Below are positions 1,369 through 22,486 of a stretch of 42,920 nucleotides of DNA, one piece after another. The stretch is from positions 1-42,920 of IMG/VR virus record IMGVR_UViG_2541047955_000001; one strand, 5' to 3'. Made by a program: the position numbers and the translations under genes. Positions within the stretch are counted from its first letter, which is position 1. The number at the start of each line of letters is the position of its first letter. The DNA comes from a virus (Duplodnaviria; Heunggongvirae; Uroviricota; Caudoviricetes). The notes beneath the pieces are model-generated. The model ran no database searches. It saw only the letters and a list, made by a program, of their open reading frames with translations, and had not been told where the DNA came from.

Positions 1369-1444
1369 GCCGATATAGCTCAGTTGGTAGAGCAGCGCAT
1401 TCGTAATGCGAAGGTCGTAGGTTCGACTCCTATTATCGGCACCA
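1369..1444 (+). tRNA. thrW: tRNA-Thr (anticodon CGU)
   Basis: 76-nt cloverleaf GCCGATATAGCTCAGTTGGTAGAGCAGCGCATTCGTAATGCG...ATCGGCACCA; anticodon loop TTCGTAA; classic P22 attB tRNA. Confidence 0.93.
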
Positions 1445-18105: not shown

Positions 18106-18180
18106 GGGTCAGTCGTATAAAGGTCATTACGGAAGGCTGTTAACCTTCTTATCGTGGTTCGAGTCCACGCTGTCCCGCCA
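18106..18180 (+). tRNA. tRNA-like, Asn (GUU) anticodon, imperfect stems
   Basis: 75 nt ending CCA; anticodon stem GAAGG/CCTTC, loop CTGTTAA; T-loop TTCGAGT; one T-T mismatch in acceptor and D stems. Confidence 0.45.
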
Positions 18181-18185
18181 AATAT

Positions 18186-18261
18186 GCTGGTTTAGCTCCA
18201 ATGGTAGAGCGGTCGCCTTGTAAGCGAATGGGTAGCGGTTCAAGTCCGTTAACCAGCACCA
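18186..18261 (+). tRNA. tRNA-Thr (UGU)
   Basis: 76 nt; 7-bp acceptor stem GCTGGTT/AACCAGC; D stem GCTC/GAGC; anticodon loop CTTGTAA; T-loop TTCAAGT; 3' CCA. Confidence 0.6.
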
Positions 18262-18827: not shown

Positions 18828-19287
18828 TCAACGTAAGGCGTTCCTCGATATGCTGGCGTGGTCAGAGGGAACTGATAACGGACGACAGAAAACCAGAAAT
18901 CATGGTTATGACGTCATTGTAGGCGGAGAGCTATTCACTGATTACTCCGATCACCCTCGCAAACTTGTCACGCTAAACCCCAAACTCAAATCAACAGCAG
19001 CCGGACGTTACCAGCTTCTTTCCCGTTGGTGGGATGCCTACCGCAAGCAGCTTGGCCTGAAAGACTTCTCTCCGAAAAGTCAGGACGCTGTGGCATTGCA
19101 GCAGATTAAGGAGCGTGGCGCTTTGCCGATGATTGATCGTGGTGATATTCGTCAGGCAATTGACCGTTGCAGCAATATCTGGGCTTCACTGCCGGGCGCT
19201 GGTTATGGTCAGTTCGAGCATAAGGCTGACAGCCTGATTGCAAAATTCAAAGAAGCAGGCGGAACGGTCAGAGAGATTGAGGTATGA
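18811..19287 (+). CDS. R: endolysin, lambda R lytic transglycosylase
   Basis: 158 aa [39 protein letters not shown]... near-identical to lambda R as recalled. Confidence 0.95.
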
Positions 19288-19751
19288 GCAGAGTAACCGC
19301 GATTATCTCCGCTCTGATTATCTGCATCATCGTCTGTCTGTCATGGGCGGTTAATCATTACCGTGATAACGCCATCGCCTACAAAGAACAGCGTGATAAA
19401 AAAGTCAGTGAGCTGAAGCAGGCGACTGTCACCATTACTGACATGCAGCAACGCCAGCGTTCTGCTGATGCACTCGATGCTAAATACACGAAGGAGTTAG
19501 CTGATGCGAAAGCTGAAAATGATGCTCTTCGGCGCAAGCTTGATAATGGTGGTCGGGTGTTCGTCAAAGGAAAATGCCCTGTGCCATCCTCAGACGAAAC
19601 CTCCAGCGCCTCCGGCATGGGCAATGATGCCACCGTCGAACTCTCTCCAGTTGCTGGACGAAACGTTCTCGGTATCCGGGACGGAATCATCAGAGACCAG
19701 ACAGCACTGAGAACGCTTCAGGGATACATCAGGACGCAATGCCTTCGATGA
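19284..19751 (+). CDS. Rz: i-spanin Rz
   Basis: 155 aa; N-terminal [32 protein letters not shown]... like lambda Rz; C-terminus divergent. Confidence 0.9.
19504..19710 (+). CDS. Rz1: o-spanin Rz1 embedded in Rz (+1 frame)
   Basis: 68 aa; lipobox VVGC and proline-rich KPPAPPAW segment; nested inside Rz. Confidence 0.8.
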
Positions 19752-20198
19752 TAGCGATAATTTTACTCATCATCCTTCACATCTGGCTCTGTAGACAGGG
19801 TGGTGATCACTTCTGGAGTGAATCCAGATTAAACATCTCATTGCTGATGCTTGAAGTTGAGCATCTGGCGCGCGGTAAGGGGCTGCGTTGAGATAAGAGC
19901 CAGTTCATTACAAAGCCTATCTACGGGTGGGCTTGATAATGAAACCGGAATTTATTCTGGGAAACCAGTTACGGCAGTACAGCGAAACAACCCAAGCCAG
20001 TAAGTGGGGAAATAACACTGGCAGCCACTGAAAGATGAACCTCCTGCCTTATGGCAAAAAAGATTCTTTGTGGTGGCGGACTGATGGAAAGACATCGGTT
20101 ATTGCAGAGGCCATTCAATGAGTGGTCTCGACAATGGCTTATACCCTACACGGGATAACTTAACTGATATCCCTTTTAACGGATAAACGGAGCCAACA

Positions 20199-20441
20199 AT
20201 GGCAGAGATTATTCCCATGACTGAAGAACAGAAATTCCAGTTAGAGATTTACAAACTGGTCATGAACCAGAACGCAGCCGCAGAAGAGGCATTTCAGTTC
20301 ATTGGCACTGACGAGCTGAAGCTTGAGCTATTCAAAATTCACTTCCAGTCAGGTGGCGCTAATTCAGATATCACGATCCGCACATTTGAAGCTGTGCGTA
20401 AATCGAAGGAAGCGTTAGACCTGTTCACTACCGGAGCATAA
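20199..20441 (+). CDS. hypothetical protein
   Basis: 80-aa ORF between the lysis cassette and the small terminase. Confidence 0.5.
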   Translation: MAEIIPMTEEQKFQLEIYKLVMNQNAAAEEAFQFIGTDELKLELFKIHFQSGGANSDITIRTFEAVRKSKEALDLFTTGA

Positions 20442-20520
20442 ACATGGCAACTCAAGGTTTCGACAACCCATCCAAATTCCGCGATGAATGGGATAAGCAA
20501 GCAGAAGGGAAATAATCAAT

Positions 20521-21009
20521 ATGGCAGCACCAAAGGGCAACCGATTTTGGGAGGCCCGCAGTAGTCATGGGCGAAATCCTAAATTCGAATCGCCTGAGGC
20601 GCTGTGGGCTGCTTGTTGTGAATACTTCGAGTGGGCTGATGATAACCCGCTATGGGAGGGTAAGGTATTTTCATATCAGGGAGAAATAATTAAGGCTAAT
20701 GTCCCTAAGATGCGAGCCATGACTATTTCAGGATTGTGTACCTTCCTTGATATCACCAGGCAAACATGGGGAACCTTCCGGTCAATGGAAGGTTTTTCTG
20801 ACGTCACATCACGAGCGGAAGACATCATCTACGACCAGAAATTCTCTGGCGCAGCCGCTGACCTTCTCAACGCTAACATCATCGCCCGTGATTTGGGCCT
20901 CAAAGAGCAGTCGCAAGTTGAAGACGTGACACCTGATAAGGGAGATCGCGATAAGCGACGCTCTCGTATCAAGGAGCTATTCAACCGTGGAACTGGACGC
21001 GATTCTTGA
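20521..21009 (+). CDS. terminase small subunit (P22 gp3 type)
   Basis: 162 aa; N- and C-termini match P22 gp3 as recalled. Confidence 0.9.
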
Positions 21010-22486
21010 TAACCTGAGCGACGAAGAGCAAATCGAATTGCTCGAGCTACTCGAAGAAGAAGAGAACTACCGTAACACACACCTGCTATATGAATTTACG
21101 CCATACAGCAAACAGCGTGAGTTCATCGACGCCGGGCATGACTATCCAGAGCGCTGTTTTATGGCTGGTAACCAGCTTGGTAAGTCATTTACTGGTGCTG
21201 CTGAAGTCGCGTTTCACCTTACCGGGCGTTATCCGGGCACAAAAGGCTATCCTGCTGATGGTAAATATGGCGGTGAGTGGAAAGGTAAGCGTTTCTATGA
21301 GCCTGTTGTCTTCTGGATTGGTGGAGAGACAAACGAGACTGTAACCAAAACGACTCAACGCATCCTGTGCGGTCGTATCGAAGAGAATGGTGAGCCAGGC
21401 TACGGTTCCATACCGAAAGAGGACATCATTAGCTGGAAGAAGTCTCCTTTCTTTCCGAACCTTGTTGATCATCTTCTGGTTAAGCATCACACGGCTGATG
21501 GCGTTGAAGATGGCATTTCAATCTGCTACTTCAAACCATACTCGCAAGGCCGTGCTCGCTGGCAGGGTGACACAATCCACGGAGTGTGGTTTGACGAAGA
21601 ACCACCATACAGCATTTATGGCGAAGGGCTTACCCGTACCAACAAATACGGGCAATTCTCAATTCTGACGTTTACCCCGCTGATGGGGATGTCTGACGTT
21701 GTTACCAAGTTCCTGAAGAACCCCAGCAAGTCGCAGAAAGTGGTCAACATGACCATCTATGACGCTGAGCACTATACCGACGAGCAGAAAGAGCAAATCA
21801 TCGCATCCTATCCAGAGCATGAGAGAGAGGCGCGTGCTCGCGGTATTCCTACGATGGGTAGCGGTCGAATCTTCCAGATACCGGAAGAGACGATTAAGTG
21901 TCAGCCGTTCGAGTGTCCTGATCACTTCTACGTAATTGGTGGGATGGATTTCGGATGGGATCACCCTCAGGCGCAGGTTCAGCTTTGGTGGGATAAGGAC
22001 GCAGACACAATCTACGTTTCACGCGTGTGGAAGGCGAAAGAAAAGACAGCCGTTCAGGCGTGGGGAGCTGTTAAATCATGGGCGCATAAAGTGCCAACCG
22101 CATGGCCTCATGACGGAAACCAGCATGAGAAGGGCGGCGGTGAGCAGCTTAAAGGGCAGTACGCGGACGCTGGTTTTATGATGTTGCAGGAGCATGCGAC
22201 ATGGCCTGATGGCGGTAATGCTGTTGAGCCTGGCATCACTGAATTGCGAGACATGATGCTCGACGGTCGCTTCAAAGTATTCAACACCTGTGAGCCATTC
22301 TTTGAGGAGTTCCGCCTCTATCACCGTGATGAAAACGGGAAAATCGTCAAGCTTAACGACGACGTGCTATCCGCCGTTCGCTATGCATACATGATGCGCC
22401 GCTTCGCAAAAATGATGCGCGACATCAAAAAACCAAAAGAGAAAAAGATACCAGCCCCAATCAGGCCCATCGCACGGAGAACTTAA
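20987..22486 (+). CDS. terminase large subunit (P22 gp2 type)
   Basis: 499 aa; Walker A GNQLGKS; overlaps terS by 23 nt as in P22. Confidence 0.95.

Follow-up and report, generated by a model that had tools for sequence, protein, structure and literature searches.

A conserved, probably structured RNA module between the lysis and packaging genes of a P22-like prophage

The gap between Rz and orf80 in the window, the whole stretch of 42,920 nucleotides of viral DNA that was analysed, is real yet not empty. It is composed of three parts, namely a doubtful 50-codon ORF, a vacant slot for accessory genes, and a noncoding module of ∼290 nt (19906–20198) whose existence as a structured RNA is well supported. 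We consider it quite probable that this module functions as an RNA element in one way or another. The specific reading that we prefer, with a confidence a little above even, is that of a selectively constrained, structured RNA that is carried in the late transcript and persists as a processed or stable autonomous species; the mechanism is inferred.

The window corresponds to a P22-like prophage (Lederbergvirus), and RefSeq has a near-identical copy between proA/tRNA-Thr and vat of an E. coli blood isolate. The features around the gap are on the + strand and comprise, from the left, an antiterminator gene, the genes for tRNA-Asn and tRNA-Thr (18106–18261), the holin and endolysin genes 5' of Rz, and Rz itself (19284–19751) with Rz1 embedded in it, followed on the other side of the gap by orf80 (DUF2560, 20199–20441; Pfam E = 2.6e-42), the small terminase gene (20521–21009), and the large terminase gene (20987–22486). 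The gap coordinates of the earlier note were correct, with Rz ending at 19751 and orf80 starting at 20199. Its claim that the gap lacks any ORF longer than ∼45 codons with a plausible ribosome-binding site was not quite right, as 19739–19891 has 50 codons and an AGGA; the truly ORF-free portion is 19892–20198 (307 bp). An ORF-free stretch of 307 bp is not improbable by chance and is notable because of its tightly packed context rather than its length alone; in the near-identical RefSeq prophage, this gap is by far the largest from the holin gene to the head/ejection genes, the others being at most ∼45 bp. The Shine-Dalgarno GGAG and the ATG of orf80 are situated at 20189–20201 (+).

A full-text search with pieces of the sequence matched a single paper, that of Naaz et al., Noncoding RNA 2026;12(4):21 (PMC13397905), which describes small-RNA sequencing of P22-infected Salmonella. 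Ten loci took 99.8% of the P22-specific small-RNA reads; four of these were the known RNAs sas, oop, 23as, and sar, and six were new (PMC13397905). One of the new RNAs, P22G (204 nt, P22 21,873–22,076, + strand), was listed as "Downstream of ORF201. No known function"; its reads were modest in number (374 and 488), and its ends were set by coverage, in that single study (PMC13397905). Neither a structure nor a function was given in the paper, and conservation was limited to identical copies (PMC13397905). Positions 19971–20114 (+) of the window correspond to P22G nt 59–204 with 141 of 146 positions identical (97%). The two sequences are on the same strand and have the same setting, after Rz and the accessory genes and before orf80 and the terminase genes. 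They differ in that P22G starts 58 nt inside rha/ORF201, a gene that is absent from the window, so that its nt 1–58 fall in the rha 3' end and have no close counterpart in the window, and in that P22 has a leftward accessory gene inserted 3' of hairpin F (see below). The reported 3' end of P22G falls in the loop of hairpin F, and P22G could be a decay intermediate. The core of the module is the orthologue of P22G, whose accumulation as a discrete small RNA is known from P22 alone. The suggestion in the earlier note that the gap could hold a small RNA thus gains support from the 141/146 identity, from the strong + strand structure, and from conservation above that of the neighbouring synonymous sites; neither of the outcomes that it had named as adverse, no transcript and poorly conserved filler, is what we observed.

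When compared with phage records by using megablast and blastn, the 293-bp module (19906–20198) was present at 90 to 100% identity in 207 records, nearly always with the annotation "none." The carriers include P22-likes and the HK97 group (HK97, HK022, HK140, mEp234, mEp235, mEpX1, and mEpX2), and in the HK97 group the module is located 5' of the HNH gp74 gene and has a 27-codon orf80 stub after it. Because the same core precedes unrelated genes, orf80 in the P22-likes versus HNH gp74 in the HK97-likes, the possibility raised in the earlier note that it is a regulatory element for the packaging operon is not favoured by the sequence comparison. Smaller pieces are also shared, with 19906–20017 found in ES18 and ∼20100–20187 found in Stx2 phages, Ss-VASD, Ayreon, and O157:H7 prophages; the core persists in phage L, from which segment G is absent. 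Pieces of the module are present in 2556 of 5426 complete E. coli genomes (47%), and at least 80% of it in 796, with nothing annotated at the module in RefSeq. A distant blastn search against phages gave no match below ∼87% identity, and a 17-mer scan of viral contigs returned the same close family and nothing else. The gap is not discussed in the genome papers of epsilon34 and phage L.

Nucleotide diversity was compared across 49 loci having both the core and orf80. The value for 19971–20140 was 0.026 and that for hairpin E was 0.0033, as compared to 0.137 at the 4-fold sites, 0.106 at the third codon positions, and 0.015 at the second codon positions of orf80. The core is therefore ∼5 times less variable than the adjacent orf80 synonymous (4-fold) sites, with the caveat that recombination can uncouple the genealogies of neighbouring segments. 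The most constrained parts are hairpin E and 20004–20026, the latter block being biased by the choice of loci with an exact 17-mer at 20010–20026. These values point to selective constraint on the core of the module.

The predicted minimum free energy of 19900–20200 was −104.1 kcal/mol for the + strand, compared to −73.8 ± 5.2 kcal/mol for shuffled sequences (z = −5.9), and the minus strand gave z = −2.9. All of the elements in the predicted fold are on the + strand. Hairpin 1 (19906–19941) has a lower stem CAUUA/UAAUG, a 2 × 2 internal loop CA/GA, a 9-bp upper stem, and a UACG tetraloop (−19.7 kcal/mol, z = −6.7; only −11.8 kcal/mol on the minus strand), and it is followed by hairpin 2 (19945–19960; CCGGAA-UUUA-UUCUGG, −6.2 kcal/mol), for which the HK97-type sequence, CCGGAG-UUAAU-UUCUGG, keeps the stem and changes the loop. 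A helix, GCCAGU/ACUGGC (19996–20026), encloses GGGGAAAUAACA and includes the motif GAAAUAACACUGGCAGCC (20009–20026). Hairpin D' (20024–20077; −19.0 kcal/mol, z = −2.7) has the stems GCCACU/GGUGGC and AAAGA/UCUUU and a big loop with CCUCC (20040–20044) and a mini-hairpin. Hairpin E (20079–20100; −10.3 kcal/mol, z = −5.1), an 8-bp stem with the hexaloop GAAAGA (20087–20092), was unchanged across 35 distinct sequences. Hairpin F (20097–20139; −23.1 kcal/mol, z = −7.1; only −10.2 kcal/mol on the minus strand) repeats the design of hairpin 1, with an 8-bp lower stem, a CA/GA internal loop, a 10-bp upper stem, and an AAU loop. Hairpin G (20152–20177), GGGAUA..UAUCCC and then UUUU, is held within 20140–20198 (−9.4 kcal/mol) and belongs to the most widespread sub-segment, 20120–20187 being present also in the Stx2 phages, Ss-VASD, Ayreon, and the O157:H7 prophages. 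For hairpins 1, E, and F, z ranged from −5 to −7, and about half of the energy was lost on the minus strand; the weaker minus-strand folds of hairpins 1 and F arise because their stems use G-U pairs. As modelled, this strand polarity points to an RNA on the transcribed strand.

No two-sided compensatory changes were observed among the 34 distinct full-length copies of the close enterobacterial family, and covariation equalled that of shuffled alignments because the family is too uniform. Support for the structure in this family comes instead from energy, from wobble-compatible changes, and from comparison of paralogues. The frequent stem polymorphisms keep pairing (G-U/A-U, 18:16; U-G/C-G, 19:13), the pair 20110/20126 of hairpin F is seen as G-U, A-U, and G-C, and the variants that break stem pairs are mostly singletons. 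Hairpins 1 and F share a lower stem UUR/YAA, the 2 × 2 internal loop CA/GA, and an upper stem of 9 to 10 bp, and a paralogous type V in other phages reads UUACA-AAAGCCAUUC-CCUACA-GAGUGGCUUU-GAUAA; among types 1, F, and V the differences are compensatory, such as GAGGCC/GGUCUC versus AAAGCC/GGCUUU and UUG/CAA versus UUA/UAA.

A scan of the + strand from 19752 to 20198 revealed no promoter and no strong terminator. Hairpins 1 and F are followed by GAUAAUG and GACAAUG, respectively, with no U tract as required of an intrinsic terminator, and hairpin G has a 6-bp stem and UUUU only. A weak terminator-like site on the minus strand (20040–20061) coincides with the in silico terminator of the phage L annotation. 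Pairing of the CCUCC loop with the Shine-Dalgarno sequence of orf80 was considered and dropped, as inspection gave only 4 bp. ARAGORN detected no tRNA or tmRNA in the gap, and Rfam searches of the window and 25 related loci, at the gathering level and at a permissive E-value, returned only tRNAs and one partial match below threshold.

This partial match was to Proteo-phage-1 (RF03044) at 19991–20026 (16.8 bits, E = 4.1) and involved the unpaired flanks only. The score compares with a gathering threshold of 42 and with 76 to 86 bits for true members, and the window is not a member of the family by this measure. The P1 and P2 hairpins of RF03044 are missing, each being represented in the window by 6 nt instead of 28 and 26 nt, respectively. 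The 3' tail of the model, GAAAaAACaCCGGCAGCC, is matched by GAAAUAACACUGGCAGCC at 20009–20026 with 16 of 18 positions identical, and true Proteo-phage-1 RNAs carry GAAAAAACACCGGCAGCC at the equivalent motif. True members were fetched from viral contigs by using the 18-mer of the tail, six of them accounting for the 76- to 86-bit scores, and they proved to be conserved well past the 82-nt Rfam model. Another ∼30 copies, all from Pseudomonas, came from a pattern scan in which each species was represented by one genome; ∼70% of the 120 pattern matches were chance occurrences in G+C-rich genomes. The Pseudomonas RNAs extend ∼150 nt beyond the Rfam model (∼230 nt versus 82 nt), and in 30 sequences the extension contains hairpin D with the loop CCUCAC, a long middle hairpin, and hairpin E with the loop GARAGA. 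This structure was set by hand, as RNAalifold misaligned hairpin E when applied to the full Pseudomonas RNA. Two-sided changes were found for 19 of the 32 pairs of the extension with 94% of the cells paired (30 sequences), a level of covariation that was reached by none of 500 shuffles, and slid controls attained at most 57% pairing. Most of the Pseudomonas copies end in an intrinsic terminator, the others run into tRNAs or begin after one, and another terminator is located 10 to 25 nt upstream of most copies. Upstream of the copies are NinG and a 231-aa ORF without assignment, and holin or other late genes follow them. The Pseudomonas RNA thus lies within the late region of lambdoid-type prophages, presumably downstream of the first late terminator.

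To relate these RNAs to the window element, covariance models were run in both directions. Model R1, built from the Pseudomonas extension only and run over the whole window with filters off, gave its best match at 20006–20112 (+) with 15.9 bits and E = 0.0038 by a rough calibration, the top of 22 matches, the next having E = 0.52. The alignment pairs the tail motif, GGCGGAC, hairpin E with its GAAAGA loop, and UAUU..AGG, and it skips hairpin D and the middle domain. The top match was at the same place in all eight phage loci with the core, and nothing under E = 0.1 was obtained in five loci without it. By nhmmer, the same two collinear pieces were recovered at nonsignificant levels (E = 0.32 and 11), the best match in the window being at the 20009–20026 motif. 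For the reciprocal model R2, derived from enterobacterial copies of 19985–20140, the three best matches in 99 kb of Pseudomonas loci fell on the RNA (E = 0.097, 0.94, and 1.2, again rough). R2 aligns the GCCAG..CUGGC helix with the P2-loop GCCGG and the tail CCGGC of Proteo-phage-1, which suggests, within the limits of the model, a pseudoknot at that place that includes an A-U/G-C exchange. The correspondence of domains differs between the two models, as R2 places hairpins E and F on the middle domain and not on hairpin E and the terminator.

The window element and Proteo-phage-1 have in common the 3' tail GAAA.AACAC.GGCAGCC and a location in the late region of lambdoid-type prophages. The likeness to the Pseudomonas extension consists of a hairpin whose loop contains CCUC and, after it as in Pseudomonas, one with a GARAGA hexaloop; the covarying Pseudomonas hairpin with the loop CCUCAC is at the same distance after GGCAGCC as the start of hairpin D', and the Pseudomonas hairpin with the loop GARAGA has covarying stems and is the one to which R1 aligns hairpin E. 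In contrast, the window element is without P1, P2, the middle domain, and a terminal intrinsic terminator, and it follows the lysis genes whereas the Pseudomonas RNA precedes them. A relationship of the window element to Proteo-phage-1 is likely, although the link is weak and not proven. The name Proteo-phage-1 yielded no use in the literature searched, and the motif is not discussed in the main text of the 2017 discovery paper. Going further, we tentatively propose, as a conjecture more likely wrong than right, that the P22G-type element and Proteo-phage-1 are one old family of structured RNAs of 150 to 250 nt in lambdoid late operons from Pseudomonas to E. coli/Salmonella, often cotranscribed with tRNAs, released as stable RNAs late in infection, and acting in trans on host or phage RNA or protein via an invariant AACACYGGCAGCC and the GARAGA loop. 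If this were true, close to half of E. coli genomes would contain a phage RNA gene that is widespread and has so far escaped annotation.

In the reading that we prefer, the ∼290-nt module 19906–20198 would be transcribed rightward within the late transcript, with the Q antiterminator causing terminators to be read through, and would fold into successive stable hairpins (1, 2, GCCAG/CUGGC, D', E, F, and G). The structured core would withstand decay or be excised from the long late mRNA, and a discrete RNA of ∼200 nt would build up late in infection, with the strong flanking hairpins 1 and F serving as protective or processing boundaries. The module would then be an autonomous RNA, like the tRNAs of the same operon, and not the leader of one downstream gene; autonomy is suggested because the sequence is kept before different genes and because terminators or tRNAs enclose what are probably its relatives in Pseudomonas. 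As contact surfaces, the best candidates would be the GAAAGA hexaloop and the AACACYGGCAGCC stretch, which hardly varies.

Late-region transcripts of other phages are known to accumulate as small RNAs, as for two short leader RNAs of lambdoid late operons, the 6S RNA of lambda and StxS of an Stx phage, and StxS demonstrates that such a late-region by-product can act in trans. Those two RNAs start at the late promoter and stop at the first terminator, whereas the window element is ∼2 kb downstream, and no promoter or terminator of its own was found; Rfam revealed no sequence similarity of the window element to lambda 6S RNA or StxS. What has already been published is the RNA as P22G, with no function given and with no entry in Rfam or genome annotations. 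What is new is the breadth of conservation, the structure and its strand polarity, the signs of constraint, the hairpins as modular boundaries, and a probable tie to Proteo-phage-1, a motif that proves to be only the 5' third of a larger covarying RNA. Lambdoid late operons are very well studied, yet this ∼290-nt segment is unannotated in almost every record and is present, in part, in about half of complete E. coli genomes as well as in the model phages P22, HK97, HK022, and Sf6. The constraint, the strong fold on the transcribed strand, and the match to a P22 RNA turn an ignored gap into a defined RNA element. If the link to Proteo-phage-1 is true, an orphan Rfam motif gains its fuller extent (∼230 nt versus 82 nt), a late-operon setting by terminators and tRNAs, and tractable systems in P22, HK97, and E. 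coli prophages. Repetition of the boundary hairpins may, in addition, partly account for the exchange of accessory-gene cassettes at this hotspot.

An alternative that we judge rather unlikely, and yet the one that best survives, is that the hairpins act in cis as punctuation of the late mRNA, as RNase III or RNase E sites, 3' stabilisers, or weak terminators, with P22G as a by-product. The lysis and accessory-gene part would thereby decay and be translated independently of the packaging and head genes, and the hairpins would set how strongly orf80 and terminase are expressed. RNase III processing sites are known in T7 and lambda transcripts, and hairpins 1 and F, with 15 to 18 bp and an internal loop, approach the size of known sites of this type. 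The position of the module between two functional blocks of one long operon fits such a role, as do the arrangement of hairpin G, then UUUU, and then the orf80 ribosome site, the annotation of the equivalent hairpin as a terminator in Ayreon, and the placement of the copies of the hairpin motif in relatives, which stand 3' of the last gene of an inserted cassette. In the T7 RNase III hairpins and the T4-type promoter-stem-loop cassettes (PMC2839356), similar stem-loops recur at gene or cassette boundaries within long transcripts, with comparable sizes and an internal loop. The analogies cover only hairpins 1, F, and V and not the conserved core, no promoter was found in the gap, and the hairpins here would be candidate cleavage sites. 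Against punctuation in cis, the most constrained parts of the module (20004–20026 and hairpin E) are not the large boundary hairpins 1 and F, which lack a U tract; the core is kept before unrelated genes and is retained in phage L without segment G; and the location of the Pseudomonas relatives between terminators or tRNAs suits a separate RNA product.

The remaining alternatives, a neutral scar, a site acting at the DNA level, and small proteins, are less likely than both the autonomous RNA and punctuation in cis. We consider it improbable that the module is a neutral leftover, meaning a recombination scar or linker after loss of accessory genes whose apparent conservation reflects recent and frequent lambdoid exchange. 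The region is indeed a mosaic of break points. The left part, up to ∼19914, is common to phages with the same Rz end, and homology to relatives breaks at 19906–19914, an insertion slot for accessory genes (morons) that in relatives holds rha/ORF201, a 174-aa ORF (Kapi1), or KilA-N plus an 85-aa ORF; GIY-YIG nuclease and anti-CRISPR genes are further insertions in relatives. Additional break points are at 19954/19964, 19964–19971, and 20096–20120, the last of these being where gene 66 of 611R6 is inserted, and an IS is inserted farther left, at ∼19768, in SEN22. Every one of these insertion slots is vacant in the window. Positions 19942–19971 resemble the final 30 nt of rha, the module with the truncated 27-codon orf80 stub in HK97-like phages indicates transfer by recombination, and identities of 90 to 99% are common for shared lambdoid segments. 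A scar does not agree, however, with diversity ∼5 times under that of the adjacent 4-fold sites, the strong strand-specific folding signal, the discrete RNA species seen in P22, or the model-based similarity to a covarying Pseudomonas phage RNA. The idea in the earlier note of a decayed moron remnant therefore survives only for the vacant slot at ∼19906–19914 and the rha-like 19942–19971, and it fails for the core, which is not a decayed gene.

We attach similarly little probability to a role at the DNA level, in which the repeated imperfect palindromes (types 1, F, and V) would serve as sites of recombination for the gain and loss of cassettes, or would bind a phage or host protein, with the RNA structure being incidental. 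Copies of these hairpins flank variable cassettes, in Stx2 phage 1717 a type-1 hairpin abuts segment G, as would be expected of a deletion between copies, and the T4-type stem-loop cassettes (PMC2839356) provide an analogy. The stems nevertheless rely on G-U pairing, and the opposite strand folds far more weakly, and the motif UUR-CA-stem-loop-stem-GA-YAA, which occurs exactly twice in the window, was found as 108 copies in 92 loci, all 108 on the + (transcribed) strand; the constraint on the nonpalindromic core would also be left unexplained. A DNA-level role could coexist with the RNA role, and the boundary hairpins may well be recombination linkers too.

That the gap codes for small proteins, the 50-codon ORF50 plus one ORF of 22 to 35 aa on the right, is very improbable, as frameshifting indels among relatives and zero family matches argue against the right part and weak constraint argues against ORF50. 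ORF50 (19739–19891, +) begins with ATG 13 nt inside Rz, overlaps the Rz stop, and is preceded by AGGA at a distance of 5 nt; the RefSeq (WP_001139681.1), Kapi1, 611R6, Sf101, and Ayreon annotations include it, and it corresponds to PHROG phrog_11822 (unknown function). Its N terminus is hydrophobic, and the product may be a small membrane protein. Among 96 homologues, 94 are open and two have an internal stop, and we counted 14 synonymous and 27 nonsynonymous variants, with 11, 9, and 18 variable sites at the first, second, and third codon positions, respectively; as judged from these sequences, both the constraint on ORF50 and the evidence for a real gene are weak. Three further ORFs of 47 to 50 codons (19851–20003, +, with a TTG start; 19952–20095, −; and 19969–20118, −) had no supporting family match. 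Within 19892–20198, ORFs of 34, 28, 35, and 22 aa were rejected as genes because 1-nt indels in relatives, after 19970 (8 of 35 sequences), 20009, and 20055, break their frames, and none of them matched a Pfam or PHROG family; the region has neither a reading frame preserved among homologues nor a protein family match. The Sf101 record annotates a 24-aa ORF within the core. The "orf118" of ST64T/L, starting at the equivalent of 20051, was also rejected as a gene and is an annotation artefact; it extends, by N-terminal read-through, a diverged homologue of orf80 that has its own ribosome site.

The Proteo-phage-1 RNA (Rfam RF03044) was examined in comparison loci from other phages and prophages (L215-L219 and L222, together with ∼30 Pseudomonas loci among L223-L330). 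The conserved RNA of the Pseudomonas loci spans ∼230 to 250 nt, so that the 82-nt Rfam model covers its 5′ third only; L289:5399-5645 and L217:716-960 are example copies of the extended form. Outside the model, two-sided changes were found at 19 of the 32 pairs of the 3′ extension. An intrinsic terminator usually closes this extension, or else it adjoins tRNAs. NinG and a 231-aa ORF lie on one side of the RNA and holin or late genes on the other. Because the GCCGG loop of P2, one of the two hairpins in the Rfam model, can pair with CCGGC in the tail, a pseudoknot is suggested.

The interval between Rz and orf80, the DUF2560 gene, carries insertions in relatives of the window. An IS/transposase remnant in SEN22 (L001:285-1432) interrupts the doubtful 50-codon ORF that overlaps the Rz stop (window 19739-19891) at the equivalent of window position ∼19,768, so that at least one viable phage can dispense with this ORF. 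A leftward 104-aa ORF and a bidirectional terminator, AAAAAAGCCGCTTACTTAGCGGCTT, are inserted in P22 (L005:1700-2335) directly after hairpin F of the structured RNA element, and the ORF insertion replaces the hairpin G segment. That segment is also missing from phage L (L006). The annotated 118-aa "orf118" of phage L (L006:1347-1703) and ST64T consists of an 80-aa DUF2560-like gene that has its own ribosome site plus an in-frame upstream extension through the non-coding element; it is probably an annotation artefact.

In the HK97 group (L008:1495-1576, HK97; L004, mEp234), the element is directly followed by codons 1 to 27 of orf80, after which the sequence diverges, just ahead of the HNH gp74 gene. 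This arrangement has the look of a recombination joint within orf80. In the Stx2, VASD, and Ayreon phages, the hairpin G segment is followed by a second block of conserved non-coding sequence, GCGYTGTATCGTCGCWGTATYNCCGCATTA, which comes after the truncated element in ES18 (L009:1305-1400, ES18; L010:1588-1640, Stx2 phage 1717; L011; L012). The packaging genes of these phages lie downstream of the block, which might have a role in DNA packaging.

The 79 nt between orf80 and the small terminase gene in the window (20442-20520) hold one 23-aa ORF (20444-20515), whereas P22, Kapi1, Sf101, and the near-identical RefSeq prophage have a 59-aa gene there. In the late leader, tRNA-Asn(GTT) and tRNA-Thr(TGT) (window 18106-18261) are located between the antiterminator and holin genes. 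A further tRNA-Thr(CGT) (window 1369-1444) is probably the integration site, since the nearly identical RefSeq prophage carries this tRNA between the integrase gene and proA.
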